A stretch of DNA of 64,000 nucleotides from an uncultured Chloroflexia bacterium (lineage in GTDB: Bacteria; Chloroflexota; Anaerolineae; CG2-30-64-16), in assembly GCA_963774265.1 (NCBI GenBank), contig CAVZDU010000001.1, forward strand, positions 736,001 to 800,000. Direction: 5' to 3'. A program made the position numbers and the translations under genes. The notes under the pieces were generated by a model. The model was not told the origin of the DNA. It worked only from the letters and a program-made list of their open reading frames with translations, and did not search any database. Positions 13,965-25,364 of this stretch are shown one piece after another (within the stretch, counting starts at the first letter, position 1; every line of letters begins with the position of its first letter).

Positions 13965-15337
13965 CTATCCGAGGTGTGCGCGCAACATCGCGATCTGGCC
14001 GGAGACGGCGGCTCGCGCCGTGCCGCCTGTCACCGCACGCTGCTCGACTGACTGCTCGAAATTCCACACTTCCCGCGTGCCAGACAGCCGCGCATCGATT
14101 CTGTGTAGTTCGGCTTGGGGCAGATCGCGCAGCGCACAACCCAGCTCTTCGGCGCGCTTGACCACCCGGCCCACGATGTGATGGCTCTCGCGGAACGGCA
14201 CGCCGCGGCGCACCAGCACATCGGCCAGGTCGGTCGCCAGCAGCTCATCGCCCAAAGCAGCGGCCATCCGGTCGGGCCGGATGGCCAGCGTCTGAACCAC
14301 GCCTCTGTGATGGGCAGGGCTAGCTTCAGCGTGTCGACTGCATCGAACAGCGGCTCTTTGTCCTCCTGCAGATCCTTGTCGTACGCGCTGGGCAGCCCCT
14401 TGAGCAACGTCAACATGCCGGTCAGCCCGCCCACCAGCCGGCCGGCCTTCCCGCGCAACAGTTCCAGTGCGTCTGGGTTCTTCTTTTGCGGCATCAGGCT
14501 GGAGCCGGTGCTGTAGGCGTCGGCCAGCATGACAAAACCGAACTCGCGGCTGCTCCACAGGATGAGGTCCTCGGCCAAGCGGCTGAGATGCACGCCGGTC
14601 AGCGCGGCCCAGAAGAGGAACTCAGCGACGAAATCGCGGTCGCTCACTGCGTCGAGGCTGTTAGGGCTGATCGCGGCAAAGCCCAGGTCAACGGCCAGTG
14701 CGGATCGATCGATGGGAAACGGGCAGCCGGCCAACGCACCGGAGCCCAGCGGCATCACGTCGACGCGCTTGAGCAGATCGGTCAGGCGCTCCCGGTCGCG
14801 CTGCCAGGCCCAGGCGTGGCTCAGCAGCCAGTGGCTCCAGCGGACGGGTTGCGCGGGCTGCACGTGGGTGTAGCCGGGCATCAGCACGTCGATCTCAGCT
14901 TCAGCCCGATTCGCGGCGGCAGCGATGAGCGCATCGAGTTCTTCCGCAAGCAATCCGGCTTCTGCCTTCAGCCACAGCCGCACGTCGGTCGCCACCTGGT
15001 CGTTGCGGCTGCGGCCCGTGTGCAGCTTGCCGGCGACGGGGCCGATGGTCTCGGTCAGCCGTCGCTCGACGTAGCTGTGGATGTCCTCGTCCCGGGCGCC
15101 CGCGAAGGCTGCCGAGGGTGCAGCCGCGATCTCCGCGCGGAGATTCGCCAACCCAGCGATGATCCGTTCGCGTTCTTCCTGCGTCAGCAAACCCGCCAGA
15201 TGAATCGCCTTCGCCCAGGCGACCGAGCCGGCGATATCGGCGTCCCACAGGCGCCAGTCGAACGGTAGCGACGCGTTGAAGCGTGTCATGAGCGGGTCGA
15301 TCTGGCCGGTGAAGCGGCCGCCCCAGAGTTGTGCCAC
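13965..15337 (-). CDS. argH: Argininosuccinate lyase (frameshift near 14300)
   Basis: LWGGRF, LHTGRSRNDQV, MPGYTH, STGSSLMPQKKNPD; C-terminus ATDLADVLVRRGVPFRESH in ORF 13965-14558. Confidence 0.95.
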
Positions 15338-15340
15338 GGT

Positions 15341-16300
15341 CTACTCCCACCGCTCGCGTCGTTGAGCGCGTCCATCTCTTCCGCGGAAAGCCGTACGCCT
15401 GCCGCGCCCAGGCTCTCGTTCAGTTGCTCGACTCTGTTTGCGCCGATGATGGGCGACGTGATGACGGGCTGTGAGAGGAGCCAGGCCAGGGCCGTCTGTG
15501 TGGGGGTGAGGTTGCGGTTGCGGGCCACCTCCTCGAGTTCGGCCAGGATTCCCCAGCCACGGTCGTTGAAGTAGCGACTGCGGATGCCTTCCAGGCGCGC
15601 GCCCTGCGTTTCGGCGCCGCGCTCGATACTTGCCGGTGAGGAAACCAGCGGCGAGCGGGCTGTAAGGGATCACGCCGATACCTTGCTCCTCGCACAGCGG
15701 CTTGAGTTCACGCTCGAACTCGGCGCGGTGGGCAAGGTTATAGTGAGGCTGGAGTGAGTCGTGTCGCGTCAAATTGTGCTTATCACTGGCCCATAGGGCG
15801 CTCGTGAGCCGCCAGGCGTGGATGTTGGACGCGCCGATGTAGCGCACCTTGCCTGCATCGATCATATCATCGAGTGCTCGCAGCGTCTCGTCGAGCGGCG
15901 TGTCACGGTCGTCGGAGTGCGTCTGGTACAGGTCGATGGTGTCCGTCTGCAGTCGACGGAGCGAATCCTCGACCGCGCGGATCAGGTGTCCGCGGCTCAA
16001 CCCCTCGCCGTTTGGGCCTTCCCACATGCGGCCGCGGGCCTTAGTCGCCAATACGATGCCTTGCCGGTTGCCGCGCGCCTTCATCCACCGGCCGATGATC
16101 TGCTCTGAGACACCGCCCGGATTGCCTTCGACCCAACGGCTGTACACATCGGCCGTGTCGATGAAGTTGCCACCGGCTTCGACGAATGCGTCCATCACCG
16201 CGAAGCTCATCGCCTCGTCGGCGGTCCAGCCCCACTGCATTGTGCCCAGGCATAATTCAGACACCTTCAGGCCTGTCCGTCCCAACCTTCGATAGTCCAT
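15341..16300 (-). CDS. Aldo/keto reductase (Tas/YajO-like), frameshifted near 15610
   Basis: [59 protein letters not shown]; tail ALAWLL...PIIGA in another frame. Confidence 0.9.
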
Positions 16301-16340
16301 ACCGACACCCCTCTCAAATCCGTGCGGGTAGCCACCCGAT

Positions 16341-17540
16341 TCATGTACGATAGTGCCCGTTGATATCCACGTACGCATGGCTCAGGTCGCACGTCCATAC
16401 CGTGGCGCAACCTTCGCCGAGACCAAGAACGACTGAAACGGCGATTTCCGGACCGTTGAAGATGGCCGTCGCTTCTTCCTCGGCGTAGGCGAGTGGTCTG
16501 CCTTGGCCGACGAGCTGGACCCGGCCCGCGCTGGCGACCGCATTATCGGTGCCAGCCGCGATCCACAGGTCAGCTCGCATCGGGTCGACGTGCGCGCCGG
16601 AGTAGCCGACCGCGGCCAGGATGCGCCCCCAGTTGGCATCCCCACCGTAGATCGCGGTCTTCACCAGCGGCGAATTGGCCACGGCCTTGGCCGCAGCGCG
16701 TGCGTCCATTGCCGTCTCGGCGCCAGATATCCGGATCGTCACGAACTTCGTGGCGCCCTCGCCGTCACGCACGATCTGCTGGGCCAGGTCGGTGCACAGC
16801 TCAGTCAGCGCGGCAGAGAATACATCACCGTCCACCGTTCCCGCCGCGCCGTTCGCCAGGGCCAGCACGGTATCGTTGGTGCTCATGTCGCCGTCGATGC
16901 TGATGGAATTGAAGCTTCGATCTACGGCTGAGCGCAGCGCGGCATCCAGCGCGTTCGGCGACACGGCGGCATCGGTGACAATGACGCTGAGCATCGTGGC
17001 CATGTTCGGATGGATCATGCCCGCGCCCTTAGCCATGCCCCACAGCCGGGCGGCGCCGGCCTGCCGGTAGGCCACCTTGGGACGCGTGTCTGTGGTCATG
17101 ATCGCGGCTGCCGCAGCGTCAAATCCATCCACCGACAGCGCGCCCGCGGCAGCCCTTGCGCCCGCCGCGATGCGTTCCATCGGGAGTCGCGGCCCAATGA
17201 CGCCAGTGGACATCACTGCCACCGACCGGGCCGGCGTGCCGAACGCGGCCTCCGCAAGGCGCGCCATCTCCGCGGCGTCGGCCAATCCTTCCTCACCCGT
17301 ACATGCATTTGCGCAGCCGGAGTTGATGACCACGCCCTGCAGACCGGTGAGATTCCCGGCGAGCAACGCACGATCATAGAGCACTGGTGCGGCAGGAAAC
17401 GCGTTGCGCGTGAACATGCCCGCGGCCAAGCACGGTCGATCGCTGACGACCACCGCGAAATCGGCGGCACCGGTTCTCTTTATGCCGGCCGCAACACCCG
17501 CGAAGCGGTAACCTTGTGGGATGACGTTGACGTCGTTCAA
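16341..17540 (-). CDS. argJ: Ornithine acetyltransferase ArgJ
   Basis: [55 protein letters not shown]; TTG start after GGAGG. Confidence 0.95.
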
Positions 17541-17568
17541 ATCAACCTCCGCCGTGCGCCTGACTGTT

Positions 17569-17612
17569 GTAGAGACGTTGCATGCTAGAGACGTTGCATG
17601 CAACGTCTCTAC
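17569..17612. repeat. REP-like palindrome GTAGAGACGTTGCATGCAACGTCTCTAC with a duplicated left arm
   Basis: GTAGAGACGTTGCATGC-TAGAGACGTTGCATGC-AACGTCTCTAC between argG and argJ; same family as 52439-52466. Confidence 0.88.
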
Positions 17613-17626
17613 AGGAATGGATGTGC

Positions 17627-18895
17627 CTAATCTCGCTTGAACGCCGAGTAATCCGGGCCAACGTGTTTGCTTCGCCCCGTGCCTTCGACGTCGAGCATGG
17701 CTGCAACCTTCATCGGCAGGCCGAACAGCTTGATGAAGCCCTCGGCATCCTTCTGATTGTACACATCCTCCTCGCCGAACGTGGCGTAATCCTCGCGGTA
17801 CAGGCTGTAGGGCGACTTCCGGCCCACGAGGGTGACGTTGCCCTTGTACAGCTTTAGTCGGGACGTGCCGGTGACATGCTTCTGAGTGACATCGACGAAC
17901 GCGTCCAGTGCTTGCCGAAGCGGGGTAAACCATTGCCCGTTGTACACCAGCTCCGCGTATTTGAGGGCGAACATCTGTTTGTATTGCAGGGTCTGCTTGT
18001 CGAGGCAGATCTGTTCCAGACCATCGTGCGCTTCGTAGAGGATCGTGCCGCCGGGTGTCTCGTAGACGCCGTGCGATTTCATGCCGACCAGCCGGTTCTC
18101 AACGATATCGGTGCGGCCTACCCCGTGGACGCCGCCGATTTGGTTCAGCTTCTCGATCAGCTTGATGGGCCCCATTGCTTCGCCGTTGATGCGCTTGGGG
18201 ACGCCCTCTTCGAAGTATATTTCGACGAACTCGGCCTGATCCGGTGCGCTCTCTGGGCTTTGCGTAAGTTGGAACATCTCCTCTTTCGGCTCGTTCCAGG
18301 GATCTTCCAGTCCACCGCCCTCATGGCTGAGGTGCCAGAGGTTGCGATCGCGGCTGTAGATCGACTTGATGGTGGCTGTTACGGGCACGTTGTGCTCGGC
18401 CGCATACTTGAGCGCGTCCTCACGGCTGCGGATGTGCCATTCGCGCCACGGCGCAATGATCTTCAGCTTGGGGTTCAGCGCCATGACGGTTAGCTCGAAT
18501 CGCACCTGGTCGTTGCCCTTGCCAGTGGCGCCGTGGGAGATTGCATCTGCGCCCTCCATCTCCGCGATTTCGACCATGCGTTTGGCGATCAGGGGACGCG
18601 CGAAGGAGGTGCCCAGCAGGTAATCCCGTTCATAAATCGCGCCCGCCTTGAGGGTGGGGTAGATATACTCGGTGATGAACTCCTCGCGCAGGTCCTCGAT
18701 GTAGAGTTTGCTTGCACCCGAGGCGAGCGCCTTAGCCTCCAGGCCCGAAAGCTCCTCTTCCTGTCCGAGGTTAGCGCAGAAACAGATCACCTCGCAGCCG
18801 TAGTTCTCCACGAGCCACGGCACGATGCACGATGTGTCAAGCCCGCCAGAATAGGCGAGCACGACCTTTGAAGCGGACTTCTTTGCAGCTGACAT
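17627..18895 (-). CDS. argG: Argininosuccinate synthase
   Basis: [57 protein letters not shown]. Confidence 0.97.
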
Positions 18896-18924
18896 TGTGT
18901 TTTTAGCTCCTCATGAAAGCGGTT

Positions 18925-19950
18925 TTACCGGGAAAGGTTGATGACGTCGCGCAGCATCGCTCCTGCGGTCGGGATAGGCCCACGCTCATCCACCTTGAGT
19001 TGTTGCAAACCCATGATGTCGGTGTCGAAAACAATGCCCATCTCCCAGCCCGACACGCCGGCGAGAAAATCTCCCATTGGAAGCCACTGCGGCTCAACCG
19101 ACAGCCGGTAGCCGTCCCCGGCTCGCTCAGCCGTCGCCACGAGTTTCACCACTTCCCCCCGGCTCGCCCCTTCCAGGATTTGTTCGGGCGTGATGTCCGT
19201 GATGCCGGTCACCGGGTGGACGTCCCGGAGCGTCGCAGGCATCCCCAAGATGCTGTTGGCGATGATCACCAGCTTGTTGGCCGTGTCCCACCCGCCTACA
19301 TCCAGGGTGGGATCTGCCTCCATGATGCCGTCGAGTTGCGCCTGCCTGAGCGCCTGGCTGTAGCTTCCACCCAGGCCCATGGCCGCGAGAATTGAGTTGC
19401 TGGTCGAATTGAAGATGCCGCGGACACTGCGGATGTCGCAGCCGACCAGGTCGCGCTGACCGATGTTGACGACTGGCAGCGCACCGCAGACGGTCGCGCT
19501 GTAAGCGAAACCAACGCCGGCTGATTGCGCTGCGGCGGTGAGATCGACGTAAGCATGAACCAGCGGCCCCTTGTTTGCCAGGACTACGCCCATACCCCGG
19601 CCAATGGCCGTGCGGACGCAGTCCAACCCGGGCTGGCCGGTCTTGAGATTGACGGGAGAGGCTTCAAGCACCAGATCGGCTGGGGCCCGCGCAATCACGT
19701 CGGGGCCCGATAATCCTGCTTCGCCGCCCTCGAACAGCCCCACGCCGCGGCCGCTCTGCTTGTGGCTGAGCAGCGCCGCGGGGTCAATGCCTGTTCCATC
19801 GATGAGGCCGCCCGAAGAGTCCGCAGCCGCGGTCAGGGCTAGCGATAGTCCGTAGCGCTCCCGCAGCAGCACTTCCTTGTCAATCATCAGCTGCAGAAAC
19901 GCTTTTCCAACATTTCCCAGCCCAATCAGCGCTAATTTCACCTGTCGCAT
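18925..19950 (-). CDS. Homoserine dehydrogenase-family protein (no ACT domain) inside the arg operon
   Basis: GLGNVG, ANKGPL, ATVCGALP, GIFNSTSN, EADPTLDVGGWDTANK. Confidence 0.85.
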   Translation of the reverse strand: MRQVKLALIGLGNVGKAFLQLMIDKEVLLRERYGLSLALTAAADSSGGLIDGTGIDPAALLSHKQSGRGVGLFEGGEAGLSGPDVIARAPADLVLEASPVNLKTGQPGLDCVRTAIGRGMGVVLANKGPLVHAYVDLTAAAQSAGVGFAYSATVCGALPVVNIGQRDLVGCDIRSVRGIFNSTSNSILAAMGLGGSYSQALRQAQLDGIMEADPTLDVGGWDTANKLVIIANSILGMPATLRDVHPVTGITDITPEQILEGASRGEVVKLVATAERAGDGYRLSVEPQWLPMGDFLAGVSGWEMGIVFDTDIMGLQQLKVDERGPIPTAGAMLRDVINLSR

Positions 19951-20007
19951 GTATGCCTCACTAGATGCCCAGCACTGAAGCCGCCGGGCGGTGGTTGGAC
20001 GACCGGA

Positions 20008-20550
20008 TTATGAACCCCAGGCATGCCTGGCGAAAGCAGGCCGCAGTGAGATGGCGCCCCGGGTTTCGGTCACCACGGCGGGTTCGCGCAGGTTAAGCAA
20101 CACGGCAATCTCATCGCATGCATCGAACTTCTGGCAGTAGATGCATTCCTGCCAGATCTTCGGGGTGATGGTCCAGCGATCTACGGTGGTGAACCCGCAC
20201 TTGTTGAAGAATTCCTCGCTGAGCGTGAGCGCACAGATGCGATCGTAGCCCGCATCGCGCGCCATCACAACCAGCACTTCGACCAGCCGCCGGCCTAGCC
20301 CCGTGCCGCGCGCCTCAGGTGCGACTGCCAACGAACGCAGCTCGGCGAGGCGGGGGGTCAGGGGCACGTTCGATCCGCACCCCACCACTTTGCTCCCCGC
20401 CTCGGCTACGATGAACCCAGGCAGCGCGCGCTTGATCTGTTCCTCAGTGCGGAAAAGCATCAGATTCTGAGCTGCGTAGCCGTTCACCACGCTGAGAATG
20501 CCGTCGATGTCGCTCTCTTTGGCAGTGCGTATTTTGATGTCCATGTCCAT
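20008..20550 (-). CDS. argA: Short GNAT N-acetylglutamate synthase (ArgA-like)
   Basis: AELRSLAV, RGTGLGRRLV, ALT...FFNKCGF, KIWQECIYCQKFDACDEIA; located in the arg operon. Confidence 0.82.
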   Translation of the reverse strand: MDMDIKIRTAKESDIDGILSVVNGYAAQNLMLFRTEEQIKRALPGFIVAEAGSKVVGCGSNVPLTPRLAELRSLAVAPEARGTGLGRRLVEVLVVMARDAGYDRICALTLSEEFFNKCGFTTVDRWTITPKIWQECIYCQKFDACDEIAVLLNLREPAVVTETRGAISLRPAFARHAWGS

Positions 20551-20561
20551 TCCCCGTTGTG

Positions 20562-21749
20562 TCATAGTTCGGCGAGGATCGCTGTCAGCCTCTCGATCAG
20601 CAGATCGATCTCTTCGCGGCTGATGGTCAGTGGCGGCACGAGCCGCAACGTGTTCGGTCCGGCATTGATGAGCAGCAACCCATGCTGGTAGCCCGCCTGA
20701 ATCACGTCGTTGGCTGGGATCGTAAGATCTGCGGCTACCATCAGCCCGACCCCCCGCACGTCGGTGATGCACGGCGAATTGATCTCTTGCAGCCGTTCCA
20801 AGAGGTATGCGCCCTTCTGTGCGACCTCGGTCAGGAATTCCGGTTGATTGACCAACTTCAGCACGGCATTAGCTACCGAGGCGACCAGCGGCGAGGCTGC
20901 GAAGGTGCTGCCGTGGTCGCCCGGATGCATGACATCCGCGACCGCCTGGGTCATCAAGACTGCGGCCATCGGTAGCCCACCGGCCAGCGGCTTTGCGGTG
21001 GTGAGAAGATCGGGCGTCACGCCATATTGCTGGTGCGCCCACAGCGTTCCTGTCCGCCCCAGGCCGCACTGCACCTCGTCGAAAATCAGCAGAGCATTGT
21101 GGGCATCGCAGAGGGCGCGCAGTTCTGCAAGGAAGGCCTGCGTGGCGGGATGGATGCCGCCCTCGCCCTGCACCGGCTCCACGATCACCGCGCACACGTC
21201 GTCATCAATGGCCTGTGCCGCGGCCTGCGGATCGTTGAATTCCGCAAAGCGAACACCGGGTAGGAGCGGCCGGAAGGGCGCCTGGTACTTCTCGCGCGGG
21301 GTGGCTGCCAGCGCACCAAAGGTGCGGCCATGGAACACGTTGGTGAACGCGACAATTGCGTGTTTTTGGGGGCCGAAACGATCGTGCGCCCACTTGCGGC
21401 TGAACTTGAATGCAGCTTCGTTTGCCTCCGCGCCCGAGTTGCAGAAGAAGACGCGCTCGGCGAAGCTGCTCGCGCACAGCGCGGCGGCCAGGTGGGCTTG
21501 CGGCGCGGTGTGATAGAGATTGGAGACGTGCCACAGCTTGCCCGCCTGCTCATTGAGAGCGGCGACGAGATCCGGGTGTGCGTGCCCCAGCGCGTTTACC
21601 GCGATGCCGGCAGCACAATCCAGGTAGCCGTTTCCCTCGGAGTCATACACCCAGGAGCCCTTCCCGTGGTCCAACACAAAGGGGGGGCGGGCATAGGTCT
21701 GGAGGACGAAGTTCTGTTCGAGGTCAATTGCTTCGTTTGTCGTAGTCAT
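20562..21749 (-). CDS. argD: Acetylornithine aminotransferase
   Basis: FFCNSGAEANEAA, FHGRT, EPVQGEGG, FDEVQCGLGRTG, AKPLAGG, HGSTF. Confidence 0.95.
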   Translation of the reverse strand: MTTTNEAIDLEQNFVLQTYARPPFVLDHGKGSWVYDSEGNGYLDCAAGIAVNALGHAHPDLVAALNEQAGKLWHVSNLYHTAPQAHLAAALCASSFAERVFFCNSGAEANEAAFKFSRKWAHDRFGPQKHAIVAFTNVFHGRTFGALAATPREKYQAPFRPLLPGVRFAEFNDPQAAAQAIDDDVCAVIVEPVQGEGGIHPATQAFLAELRALCDAHNALLIFDEVQCGLGRTGTLWAHQQYGVTPDLLTTAKPLAGGLPMAAVLMTQAVADVMHPGDHGSTFAASPLVASVANAVLKLVNQPEFLTEVAQKGAYLLERLQEINSPCITDVRGVGLMVAADLTIPANDVIQAGYQHGLLLINAGPNTLRLVPPLTISREEIDLLIERLTAILAEL

Positions 21750-21756
21750 CAGTATT

Positions 21757-22521
21757 CTATCCTTTGATGATAGCCGTGCCGCCGTCGTTCGCCAGCCCGG
21801 CCAGGTCCGTAATGACAGCCTGGTACACGCCGCTCAGCACTGCTTCGGTTGCAGAGCGCACTTTCGGGATCATGCCGCCGGTGATGTGACCGTCCGCGAT
21901 CAAGCCCTCGATCTGCTTGACGGTCAGCGCGCGCATCGTCCTGCCGGTTACCTGCACACCCGGTACGTTGCTGACGAACACCAGCCGCGCCGCCTCGACG
22001 GCTTTTGCGACCCCGGCGGCCACGTGGTCCGCATTGACGTTATATGCCAACCCATCCTCACCCAGCGAGACGGGCGAAATGACCGGGGTCACGCCGAGGT
22101 CGAGCACTTGCAGGAGCGCCTCGCCGTTCACATGTTGCACCGCACCCACCCGGCCCAGGCTGCGGCCGTTGACCGACAACGGCGTGACGCGCACCAGGCC
22201 CATGTCCACTCCTGAAAGGCCCACCGCATCCACACCACCGTTCACCAGGGAGCGCACCAGTCGCGTGTTGACGACCCCGTTCAGCACCATCTCCACTAGC
22301 CGCAGGCTTTCCTCCGACGTGGCGCGCAGCCCCTCGACGGTCTCGAAGCTCACTCCGAGCTGATCGTGAAGCGCCGCAATCTCCTTGCCCCCGCCGTGGA
22401 CGATGATGACAGCGTGGTCGACGAAGAGTCCCTTGACCGCCTGGACAAAGCCGAAGAGAAAGTCCTCATCCTCGACCTGGTTGCCGCCGATCTTGAGCAC
22501 CAGCACGCTCTTCTCGTTCAT
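21757..22521 (-). CDS. argB: Acetylglutamate kinase
   Basis: LKIGGN, VHGGG, GLRAT, NVNAD, GGMIPKV. Confidence 0.95.
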   Translation of the reverse strand: MNEKSVLVLKIGGNQVEDEDFLFGFVQAVKGLFVDHAVIIVHGGGKEIAALHDQLGVSFETVEGLRATSEESLRLVEMVLNGVVNTRLVRSLVNGGVDAVGLSGVDMGLVRVTPLSVNGRSLGRVGAVQHVNGEALLQVLDLGVTPVISPVSLGEDGLAYNVNADHVAAGVAKAVEAARLVFVSNVPGVQVTGRTMRALTVKQIEGLIADGHITGGMIPKVRSATEAVLSGVYQAVITDLAGLANDGGTAIIKG

Positions 22522-23555
22522 CAGAGCAGCCCCATCCTCTCGTCCAGGCCCAACATGATGTTCATGTTCTGCACTGCCTGGCCGGATGCACCCTTGATCA
22601 GGTTGTCGAGGGTGGCGGTCACGATCAGCAGATCGGTCCCCGGCACGAAGGTCAAACCGAGCGCACAGAAATTGGTGTAGACCGTATGCGCCAGGGTGGC
22701 AACCTGGCCCGGCTTCAGCAGGTGGATGAACGGCTCGTTCGCGTAGGCTTCCTCGTAAGACGCTCTGACGACGGCTTCGCTGATGCCGGACGGGAGTGTC
22801 ACGTAGAGGGTCGAGAGAATGCCGCGGTTCGTAGGGAGAAGGTGGGGCGAGAAGATCAGTTGGAGCGGGGCCTGGCCGTTGGTGAGTTGGCTGAGGGCGT
22901 GTAATTCCTGCTCCATCTCGACCAGGTGCCGGTGTGTCCGGCCGATGCTGTACGGGCTCATGTTCTCATTCGTTTCGACAAAGTGCGTCTTGAGGGAGAG
23001 ACCCCGGCCCGCGCCTGATACGCCCGACTTGCTGTCCGCGATGACTGCGCCCTGGAGCCAACCGGCGCTGGCCAGCGGCGCCAGGCCCAGGATGATGCTG
23101 GTCGCGTAGCAGCCTGGGTTGGCGACGAGGTGTGTCGCTTTGATCTCCGCGCGATGGAGCTCGGGCAGCCCGTAAACGGCTTCAGCCAGCCAGGTCGGTT
23201 CGTTGTGTGGGTGACCGTACCAGGTTTCGTAGGCTGCGGCGTCATGAATCCGGTAATCCGCACTGAGATCGACAACCCGTGCGCCGGCCCGCCGCGCGGC
23301 GGCCACCGGCGCCTGCGCCGTTGCGTGCGGAAGGCAGCAGAACACTACGTCCGCCGTTGCCAAGTCCGCATCAGCTGCTTTGACCAGGACCGTGTCGCCG
23401 ATGAAGGGCGGAACTGGGAAGACATCGCCGAACCGTTGGCCTGCCGAGTTCTCCGATGTCAGCCAGGCGATCTCCGCCAGGGGATGCCGCGCCAGGATCT
23501 TGAGCAACTCCAACCCGGTGTATCCGGTTGCGCCGATAATGCCGATTTTGATCAT
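22521..23555 (-). CDS. argC: N-acetyl-gamma-glutamyl-phosphate reductase
   Basis: GATGYTG, DLSADYR, YGLPE, ANPGCY, KSGVSGAGR, DNLIKGASGQAVQNMN. Confidence 0.96.
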   Translation of the reverse strand: MIKIGIIGATGYTGLELLKILARHPLAEIAWLTSENSAGQRFGDVFPVPPFIGDTVLVKAADADLATADVVFCCLPHATAQAPVAAARRAGARVVDLSADYRIHDAAAYETWYGHPHNEPTWLAEAVYGLPELHRAEIKATHLVANPGCYATSIILGLAPLASAGWLQGAVIADSKSGVSGAGRGLSLKTHFVETNENMSPYSIGRTHRHLVEMEQELHALSQLTNGQAPLQLIFSPHLLPTNRGILSTLYVTLPSGISEAVVRASYEEAYANEPFIHLLKPGQVATLAHTVYTNFCALGLTFVPGTDLLIVTATLDNLIKGASGQAVQNMNIMLGLDERMGLL

Positions 23556-23590: not shown

Positions 23591-23623
23591 AAAAAAACCA
23601 GCACCCGGGTCTGGGTGCTGGTT
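23591..23623 (-). terminator. Intrinsic terminator in the argC leader (putative attenuator)
   Basis: Minus strand AACCAGCACCC-loop-GGGTGCTGGTT ending in a T7 tract, about 35 nt upstream of the argC ATG and downstream of the promoter. Confidence 0.85.
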
Positions 23624-23676
23624 CGCCACGTTTCTGTCTTAGACGTTCGGCTCGCGCGAGCTCCTGCGACCGGGTG

Positions 23677-23787
23677 CTAACCCGTTCTCCTGGTGCTACG
23701 ACGACGAGGGAAGCGAAGGCTAAAAGCCAATGTATCTCCGAACGTTGGGATATGCTTCTGGTGCAACAACTCTCTGCTGCTGCCCAT
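23677..23787 (-). CDS. Putative Arg-rich leader peptide (36 aa from ATG 23787, or 17 aa from TTG 23730)
   Basis: MGSSRELLHQKHIPTFGDT-LAFSLRFPRRRSTRRTG*; Arg codons CGC, CGT CGT CGT, AGG AGA near the end; GGAG 5 nt before the TTG. Confidence 0.72.
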   Translation of the reverse strand: MGSSRELLHQKHIPTFGDTLAFSLRFPRRRSTRRTG

Positions 23788-23802
23788 CTTTTGACGGGCG
23801 AG

Positions 23803-23831
23803 AGTGTAGCACAGGTCTCAGATGGTGTCAA
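23803..23831 (-). promoter_or_regulatory. Sigma70-type promoter of the arg operon
   Basis: TTGACA (23831-23826)-17 nt-TACACT (23808-23803) with TGn extension. Confidence 0.82.
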
Positions 23832-24602: not shown

Positions 24603-24777
24603 TCCAAGACCGGACCTAGTGGCCGGCGTTGGCATTCCAGGCATGATAACCCACTGAAAACCTGCTTTCCTGGTGAACGCAGGTTTTTTTATGGTGTTTT
24701 TGGGTACGTCTTTGTTTACGAATTTCGTTTGTTTGCAGCGTATTTGTCACGAAAATAGGTAGCTTTTTGCTTGTCTG

Positions 24778-24806
24778 TTGACACTTGTCTGCGAACGTTA
24801 GATAAT
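24778..24806 (+). promoter_or_regulatory. Sigma70-type promoter preceded by an AT-rich tract
   Basis: TTGACA-17 nt-GATAAT, 18 nt upstream of the Lrp ATG; T-rich region 24680-24780. Confidence 0.75.
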
Positions 24807-24824
24807 TCACAACTGGAGGGACTC

Positions 24825-25364
24825 ATGGTTCACACCCTGGACGAGTGCGATCGCCAGATCATCAGCCTGCTGCAAAAGGATGGACGCGCATCGAATGTCG
24901 AGATCGCCCGGTCCTTGGGTCTGGCTGAGGGTACGGTCCGCAAGCGCCTGGAACGGCTGTTTGACCAGGGGATCATCCGCATGATGGCCGTGGCAGATCC
25001 AGCCAGGCTGGGGCTGACCGCGTCGGTTTTCATCGGCATCCAGGCCGAACTGGGCCAGTTGAACGAGGTCGCGCAAAGGTTGGCAGCTATCCCTGAGGTG
25101 CGTTGCGTCAACATCGTGACCGGCGCGTATGACATGATGATCGAAGCCGTCTTGCCCTCGGGTGAACATCTGCTTTCCTTCCTGATTGACAAGGTCTCGA
25201 CCATTCCGGGCATCAAACGGACGGAGACGAGCCATGTGATGCAGGTGGTCAAGCAGGCGTGCGATTGGGCTGTGCCGGAATTGACTACTGCACCCGCCAG
25301 CTCCGGTCGCGGTGCGACGCCGTCGGCCACTCAGGTCATGCCCGGCGCAATCGTGGTTTCCTGA
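24825..25364 (+). CDS. Lrp/AsnC-family transcriptional regulator
   Basis: LDECDRQIISLLQKDGRASNVEIARSLGLAEGTVRKRLERL HTH; VTGAYD; IPGIKRTETS. Confidence 0.93.
   Translation: MVHTLDECDRQIISLLQKDGRASNVEIARSLGLAEGTVRKRLERLFDQGIIRMMAVADPARLGLTASVFIGIQAELGQLNEVAQRLAAIPEVRCVNIVTGAYDMMIEAVLPSGEHLLSFLIDKVSTIPGIKRTETSHVMQVVKQACDWAVPELTTAPASSGRGATPSATQVMPGAIVVS

Follow-up and report, generated by a model that had tools for sequence, protein, structure and literature searches.

The argC gene in the window (the whole stretch of DNA analysed, 64,000 nucleotides of contig CAVZDU010000001.1 from an uncultured Chloroflexia bacterium) is preceded by a leader which we consider, with high confidence, to be a ribosome-mediated transcription attenuator of the trp/his type that would sense arginine through the supply of charged tRNA-Arg. 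The operon would most likely be switched on when charged tRNA-Arg runs low. A first-pass annotation of this sequence had described a near-consensus promoter, a short arginine-rich open reading frame (ORF), a hairpin with a run of seven T residues and then argC, and all are present in that order on the minus strand, to which all positions below refer unless otherwise stated. The leader ORF (23677..23730) starts with TTG at 23730, encodes 17 codons (MAFSLRFPRRRSTRRTG) and ends with TAG at 23679..23677; as annotated, six of its last 12 codons specify arginine (CGC, three CGT, AGG and AGA). The intrinsic terminator (23591..23624; GAACCAGCACCC-AGACCC-GGGUGCUGGUUU plus the T tract) corresponds to regions 3 and 4 of an attenuator. 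Its stem, at 23624..23595, was annotated as 11 bp and comprises 12 pairs, seven of them G-C, closed by a six-nucleotide loop and followed by T7 at 23597..23591, with a hairpin energy of about -20 kcal/mol. The argC start codon (ATG) lies at 23555 (TIGR01850, E 7e-114).

Taken on its own, this single leader sequence is without significance. Within 9 kb, two promoter-like sites were observed against 1.9 expected from shuffles, and five terminator-like sites against 6.5. A crude scan of the whole genome for a short ORF with an amino-acid run, followed by a terminator and then by a long ORF, returned 137 candidates, many with arginine runs, much as the first-pass annotation had anticipated in warning that arginine-rich upstream ORFs are common by chance in GC-rich DNA; of ten candidates that we checked, nine were spurious and one, before pheA, was plausible. 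Because arginine-rich mini-ORFs are so frequent by chance in a genome of 62.6% G+C, it is conservation that decides the case, and the significance of the element derives from its conservation across relatives.

We collected the argC loci of 40 relatives for comparison of their leaders. Of the 25 genomes in the window's family, 24 have a homologous leader upstream of argC, and the remaining one (G003) is without an assembled argC. A covariance model built on the part from the ORF to the terminator (R1) detects the element just once in the window's own genome, and gives full-length matches, again one copy per genome, in 34 of the 37 genomes of the order, which consists of this one family. All 16 high-quality genomes of the order match, and the three misses are genomes that are 63-76% complete. 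Across 150 genomes of the class, R1 matches only within the window's family, apart from four weak hits that we rejected as unrelated terminators or attenuators. Metagenomic loci agree with this picture. Scanning with a pattern that describes only the 3' part of the RNA and includes no arginine codons yielded 34 loci (25 distinct), and each of the 23 distinct loci in which the upstream DNA is long enough contains an R-F-P-R-(R/P)-R ORF; a start of argC follows wherever the downstream stretch reaches the next gene. Patterns of lower specificity were set aside. A contig search with the arginine-codon pattern proved too loose, with true leaders at 12 of the 80 loci examined and the rest consisting of GC-rich coding sequence, mostly actinobacterial. 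A class-wide pattern, TTYCCNCGTCGTCGT, matches in 68 of 401 genomes, and the 20 matches outside the family that we examined were all due to chance, lying in unrelated contexts with no terminator. Judged by these sequence comparisons, the element is conserved before argC across this order of Chloroflexota.

The leader ORF carries several signs of translation in the 28 argC leaders that could be aligned. The motif R-F-P-R-x-R is kept in all 28, so that the conserved arginine-codon ORF proposed for orthologous leaders is found both here and in the 23 usable metagenomic loci. Start codons are GTG (16 loci), TTG (six) or ATG (six), never CTG, and in each of the 28 leaders they lie 5-10 nt past an invariant GGAG; in the window this Shine-Dalgarno (SD) sequence is at 23739..23736, within the SD region ACGUUCGGAG (23736..23745). 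All 28 frames are closed by an in-frame TAG, TAA or TGA. Five leaders contain insertions, of 1, 5, 10, 10 and 15 extra codons, and the frame is never broken. Across the six codons of R-F-P-R-x-R, mean column entropy is 0.04, 0.08 and 0.70 at the first, second and third codon positions. Given the codon periodicity, the whole-codon indels, the restriction of starts to ATG, GTG and TTG and the position of GGAG 5-10 nt upstream, we read the ORF as translated, and in these alignments it is a leader that behaves as a translated gene. Not all of it is equally constrained. The middle arginine is replaced by proline or alanine in three of 28 loci; the three CGU codons are otherwise fixed, except that the third is CGC in one metagenome locus and one genome. 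Residues past the arginine run vary, as does ORF length. Of the two tandem arrangements that had been singled out, CGT CGT CGT is thus conserved, but the AGG AGA pair is confined to the window's genus and the conserved core is R-F-P-R-x-R. The first arginine of the triplet lies 24-27 nt ahead of the stop codon in 19 of 24 loci.

The RNA around this ORF adopts a well-supported fold in the terminated state, which we derived from RNAalifold together with our own pair counts. Among 24 sequences, 92.1% of alignment cells are paired and ten pairs show compensatory changes; among 49 distinct sequences the figures are 91.8% and nine. None of 500 shuffles reaches these numbers of compensatory pairs in either set, so that the helix covariation looked for in the leaders is present for the terminated state. 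The leader is closed by a long-range helix in which the SD flank pairs with CCGAACGU (alignment columns 113-119 with 259-265), with 95% of cells paired and compensatory changes at five of seven pairs. In the window, the 3' strand of this closed domain (23643..23661) comprises GCUCGCGCGAG, opposite the arginine codons, and CCGAACGU, opposite the SD flank. Both of the competing pairings previously reported exist as complementarities: ACGTTCGG (23745..23738) with CCGAACGT (23650..23643), and AGCACCCGG (23678..23670) with CCGGGTGCT inside the terminator.

Inside the closed domain, the regulatory codons CGC UUC CCU CGU CGU CGU (R F P R R R; 23698..23715), which constitute region 1, pair with 23661..23651. 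This region 1:2 helix, in which the codons CCN-CGU-CGU pair with CGCGCGAG, has 93.5% of its cells paired in the 49 distinct sequences (columns 20-26 with 75-81). Changes at the wobble base of the proline codon are matched by changes in the region 2 base that it pairs with (UA 24, CG 10, UG 8), which argues that the regulatory codons lie inside a real helix, as they do in classical attenuators; the conservation of Phe-Pro (UUCCC) is in turn explained by this pairing, which sequesters the G-run of region 2. The hairpin whose loop holds the stop codon (P3, or helix 2; GA-CGGGU / ACCCG-GUC; 23668..23688) has compensatory changes at five of seven pairs, and the small spacer hairpin (P4; UCU-AAGAC-AGA; 23633..23643) has 86% of cells paired and one compensatory pair. 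The terminator itself has 97.8% of cells paired across the 49 distinct sequences. In one relative (locus L003, genome G007) the terminator loop contains a 17-nt insertion in which the AGCACCCGG motif recurs, so that the terminator is longer and branched.

These elements suggest the following mechanism. Transcription would begin at the conserved promoter, and a ribosome would load at GGAG-N5-TTG and translate the 17-codon leader. With no ribosome on the leader, or after its release, the RNA would fold as one closed domain, with the SD flank held by CCGAACGU, the Phe-Pro-Arg codons of region 1 paired to the AGG.../CGCGCGAG strand of region 2 and the stop codon in the apical hairpin; the terminator would then form, and transcription would stop before argC with the operon off. 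Where Arg-tRNA is ample, the ribosome would reach the stop codon and cover the start of region 2, again leading to termination and an operon that is off. Where Arg-tRNA is scarce, the ribosome would stall at CGU CGU CGU while UUC CCU occupied the E and P sites, masking region 1 and leaving region 2 free. The freed region 2 could then pair at three places, GGUC with GACC of the terminator loop, the G run with CCC atop the 5' arm and AGCACCC(GG) with the 3' arm, and the three pairings together would prevent nucleation of the terminator, so that RNA polymerase would continue into argC. The stall, the antiterminator pairing and the arginine response are each something that we infer. Conservation and covariation thus favour the original proposal that arginine is sensed by ribosome stalling, although the response to arginine itself is deduced from sequence.

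The first-pass annotation had been unable to assign a classical 2:3 antiterminator. A candidate can now be described that runs from the stop codon onward: region 2 (UUAGCACCCGGUC-GCAGGAGCUCGCG; 23655..23680) is the terminator's best duplex partner in 22 of 24 loci, where the best leader-terminator duplex has its beginning at the stop codon (positions read by eye). The candidate has three parts, namely UUAGCACCCGG with the 3' arm of the terminator, GGUC with GACC in the terminator loop, and the next G-run with CCC atop the 5' arm. Its duplex energies range from -20 to -38 kcal/mol, compared with -16 to -29 kcal/mol for the hairpin in the same 24 loci. Pairing between region 2 and the terminator is possible in 84% and 87% of cells in two sets of sequences, as against 19-56% when the strands are slid relative to each other (36-56% for the set with 87%). 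In one locus (L019), GGUC has changed to GAUC together with a change of GACC to GAUC in the loop. Folding with a ribosome footprint gave a mixed outcome. When the transcript is cut ahead of the 3' arm, about 10 of 24 loci show region 2 paired with the terminator in the stall state; if the leader is free of ribosomes, or if one sits at the stop codon, such pairing is near zero, except in L004 and L005. The predicted direction of the footprint effect in these cut transcripts is therefore right, and we regard the support as partial.

Several observations weigh against this account. Covariation in the antiterminator is at the level of shuffles: it has one compensatory pair, a number that 230 of 500 shuffles attain in one test and 330 of 500 in the other. 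The whole duplex clearly beats composition-matched shuffles (≤5/300) in only eight of 28 loci, and the GGUC/GGG nucleus does so (≤15/300) in just nine of 28. When ribosome masks are applied to equilibrium energies, the three ribosome states are not separated, and the terminator is favoured in all of them by about 10 kcal/mol (means 11.1, 10.2 and 11.8). In the cut-transcript ensembles, about 14 of 24 loci have no pairing between region 2 and the terminator in any state, and no partner for the whole 5' arm of the terminator was found in the truncated folds. A ribosome stalled on the arginine codons would, moreover, not extend as far as the 5' side of the hairpin that holds the stop codon, so that some of region 2 would remain paired until displaced. 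A further point concerns the conserved 5' module (23751..23792; AAAAGAUGG, a variable hairpin, then CCAGAAGCAUA, as delimited in leader alignments), which is present in about 20 of 24 loci by reading of the alignments and missing from L014, L020 and L026, all of which keep the remaining element. A search for a consistent pairing partner for this module found none, and the module has no place in the attenuator model; its AUG, considered as an alternative start, was rejected since it does not share the frame of the leader ORF in every locus. The failure to find ArgR, described below, must likewise be read as 'not found' and not as 'absent', because the window's own genome is 84% complete. The antiterminator is the weak link of the model, one in which pairing potential is conserved and covariation does not rise above shuffles.

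Some indirect support for antitermination in the window's family may come from a sister family (f14; L030 and L256-L268). Here a leader of the form ..RFPRIRRPE(T/A)LPGIGSGAGRR.. and a C6/G6 terminator precede argC, and the two families share the R-F-P-R core while the RNA downstream differs. In the stall state, with a later cut of the transcript, a classical 2:3 antiterminator is predicted for f14 at every one of the 12 evaluable loci, the expected pairs numbering about 11-20.

Two further lines of evidence bear on how arginine might be perceived. As regards protein regulators, the ArgR C-terminal domain (PF02863) was found in none of 41 genomes of the class, that is, the window's own (84% complete) and 40 relatives, in a search that detected it in eight of 14 reference genomes used as controls; the model of the whole protein (TIGR01529) likewise found nothing in the window's own genome. 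Known RNA families were also sought. A search of the region against 4227 Rfam families, with E values up to 10, returned only a chance miRNA match (E 5.1), and the loci of four relatives gave no match at gathering scores; among these, neither the T-box model nor the curated leader families (His, Trp, Leu, Thr and others) matched the region or the four relatives' loci.

As regards tRNA, the 50 tRNAs of the window's own genome (G000) include tRNA-Arg with anticodons GCG, UCG, CCG, UCU and CCU (two copies), with genes at C2:3216-3291, C3:507716-507789, C1:1350666-1350738 and other positions, and tRNA-Arg(ACG) was not found among the 50. Among the relatives' loci compared (L181-L200), the GCG tRNA belongs to a Ser-Ser-Arg tRNA cluster that is conserved in 15 of the 16 family genomes searched; in one relative within the class (L199), ACG and GCG genes occur together. 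Since a GCG tRNA is present and an ACG tRNA was not found, CGU should be read by G:U wobble, and both CGU and CGC appear to be decoded by a G34 tRNA rather than by the usual inosine tRNA. Within the own genome CGC is the commonest arginine codon (43%), CGU accounting for 13%. The near-invariant CGU of the leader may thus have been chosen because it is wobble-read by tRNA-Arg(GCG), making it a sensitive gauge of the major isoacceptor. The same set of ARAGORN predictions includes one CUA tRNA ('Pyl'), for which a suppressor, a pyrrolysine tRNA and a false call are all conceivable, and one tRNA-Sec (UCA); a selA gene is present in G000 at C1:1423526-1424866 (L212).

Could the leader serve some other purpose? 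One alternative is that the peptide itself is the sensor, R-F-P-R-x-R acting within the exit tunnel to arrest the ribosome when it detects free arginine or ornithine, much as SpeFL, TnaC and the fungal arginine attenuator peptide (AAP) do, in which case the arginine codons would count as residues and not as a gauge of tRNA supply. That the R-F-P-R core is common to the two families (f1 and f14) even though their downstream RNA differs is what this explanation would lead one to expect, as is the fact that synonymous changes leave the residues unaltered. We nevertheless think it improbable. An arrest at high arginine would need to hold the ribosome over region 2, and as the fold without a ribosome already terminates, such an arrest would add no switch that turns the operon on at low arginine; the conserved UUCCC is accounted for by its pairing with the G-run of region 2, in which the proline wobble base covaries, and the variable residues after the arginine run, the variable ORF length and the three of 28 loci in which the middle arginine is proline or alanine are not what a peptide sensor would favour. 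The preservation of R-F-P-R-x-R in two families whose downstream RNA has diverged does raise the idea of a hybrid sensor, with arginine synthesis set jointly by the charging of tRNA-Arg(GCG) and by the nascent chain, where the motif could sharpen or gate the stall at wobble-read CGU, either via the P-site proline or via a tunnel contact like those of AAP and SpeFL. This we regard as unlikely.

A different possibility dispenses with the codons and treats the leader as a structured RNA under a trans-acting factor, whether through an arginine-binding RNA-binding protein or as a small-molecule riboswitch, with the ORF incidental or an aid to folding. The good conservation of the closed leader domain and of the 5' module, along with the weakness of an antiterminator made of RNA only, would be understandable on these terms. 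The three-base periodicity, whole-codon indels, ATG/GTG/TTG starts and spacing of GGAG nevertheless favour translation, no Rfam family matches and the 5' module is missing from three loci that keep the remainder, so that we hold such a factor to be distinctly improbable. Least credible, to the point that we give it hardly any weight, is the absence of regulation altogether, the terminator being a leaky constitutive one or an insulator after upstream transcription and the arginine-rich ORF a by-product of high GC content. The abundance of arginine-run mini-ORFs beside terminators in the crude scan and the shuffle-level counts of promoter-like and terminator-like sites in the region are what one would expect in that event, but an element that occurs once, ahead of argC, in 34 of the order's 37 genomes, with its own conserved promoter, a coding signature and covarying helices that take in the codons, is hard to reconcile with it. 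An attenuator that gauges tRNA-Arg charging remains the explanation that we prefer.

The promoter of the leader (23803..23831) consists of a -35 element TTGACA, a 17-nt spacer and an extended -10 element TGcTACACT, with 10 of 12 matches and the TG present, and both elements can be aligned in all 24 family loci in the argC-leader alignment. As well as being the ribosome-binding site, the SD region provides the 5' strand of the long-range closing helix. Downstream of the leader, a cluster identified by NCBIfam and Pfam scans (14030..23555) comprises argC, argB, argD, an N-acetyltransferase gene, a homoserine-dehydrogenase-like gene, argG, argJ, an aldo/keto reductase gene and a Lyase_1 gene, the last of which is probably argH. 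Spacing and strand suggest that the cluster forms one transcript. A search for expression data listed no RNA data set containing this sequence; contigs from two runs aligned with it solely as short fragments, 90-95% alike, which do not mark the ends of transcripts. Embedded among its arg genes are the homoserine-dehydrogenase-like gene (18925..19950) and the aldo/keto reductase gene (15341..16378). About 0.9 kb upstream of the arg promoter and divergent from it lies a gene for an Lrp/AsnC-family regulator (24771..25364, plus strand), with a LysM-type top NCBIfam match that falls under the cut-off and a near-consensus promoter-like site at 24778..24806. A dedicated role for this gene is doubtful, since the neighbourhood differs in a relative from the same genus (L002).

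Other candidate attenuators were encountered in the class. In the window's own genome, a short SD-bearing ORF on the minus strand with the residues F-Y-Y-Y-F and a terminator of -23 kcal/mol (G000:C7:436519-438009; L217) lies 40 nt upstream of the gene for a fused chorismate mutase/prephenate dehydratase and is a candidate Phe/Tyr attenuator. In other families of the class, a leucine-rich leader (MSKLLLNLVLALSLLLGLKELL...) and terminator precede leuA (L254, G086:C7), and a proline-rich leader (MPAIRPPSLPAPEHRT) and terminator precede proS, encoding prolyl-tRNA synthetase (L252, G126:C11); both gene names were read by eye. Leader-peptide attenuation thus seems, from these sequences, to be in general use in this class.

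What would be new here is a textbook mechanism with a new amino-acid specificity, in an RNA family unrecorded in Rfam. If the interpretation is correct, arginine would join the amino acids sensed by ribosome stalling, and the regulation of arginine synthesis would be explained in uncultured, environmentally abundant bacteria in which ArgR was not detected. The use of CGU, read via G:U wobble, would also allow ideas on codon choice in attenuators to be tested cleanly, in a small translated ORF and regulatory RNA of the kind that annotation pipelines and Rfam miss.

The classical leader-peptide attenuators of enterobacteria are trpL, hisL, leuL, thrL, pheL and ilvL, and textbook leader-peptide attenuation spans His, Trp, Leu, Thr, Phe and Ile/Val. 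Like the trp and his leaders, the leader described here has a short promoter-proximal ORF in which codons for the end product are clustered, and an intrinsic terminator precedes the first structural gene. Its regulatory codons belong to region 1, the pairing partner of region 2, and its stop codon lies just before or in region 2. It differs from them in that the amino acid is arginine and no Rfam family matches, in that its candidate antiterminator would pair mainly with the terminator's loop, 3' arm and upper 5' arm instead of the whole 5' arm, and in having its SD flank in a long-range closing helix and an additional conserved 5' module.

Bacterial arg genes are usually controlled by the ArgR/AhrC repressor acting at ARG boxes, or by a T-box in some Firmicutes. 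A T-box resembles the proposed attenuator as control at the RNA level of arginine-related genes through the charging of tRNA-Arg, with a terminator as its target, but binds uncharged tRNA directly and does not need translation. ArgR/AhrC has in common with it the arginine-dependent shut-off of arg genes, but is a protein repressor that acts at the promoter. The fungal AAP (arg-2/CPA1) is a eukaryotic system that detects free arginine by way of the nascent peptide and acts by blocking scanning or translation; it too uses an upstream ORF to control an arginine-pathway gene in response to arginine, though without a terminator and without gauging the supply of tRNA.

Our full-text literature search, which left most subscription journals outside its coverage, found no leader-peptide attenuator of a bacterial arg-biosynthesis operon, in line with the initial remark that such control is not established for bacterial arginine synthesis. 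Leader-peptide attenuation systems in general are treated in PMC2965389, where the sections consulted do not mention arginine, and in PMC1262725, where the sections consulted describe arginine as T-box-controlled elsewhere and report no RNA element for arginine in Actinobacteria; the portion consulted of PMC8632094 presents upstream-ORF motifs without an arginine leader. The nearest case in this literature, as far as the consulted parts of its report go (PMC6386406), is orf34 in the leader of Salmonella speF, where the ribosome pauses at two consecutive arginine codons when arginine is low. As proposed here for argC, pausing at arginine codons of an upstream ORF alters the fold of the downstream mRNA, the outputs in orf34 being Rho-dependent termination, unfolding of the ribosome-binding site and RNase G decay. 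In the same account, the target of orf34 differs from that of the arg leader, being ornithine decarboxylase, an enzyme of polyamine synthesis, with no intrinsic terminator placed before arg genes.

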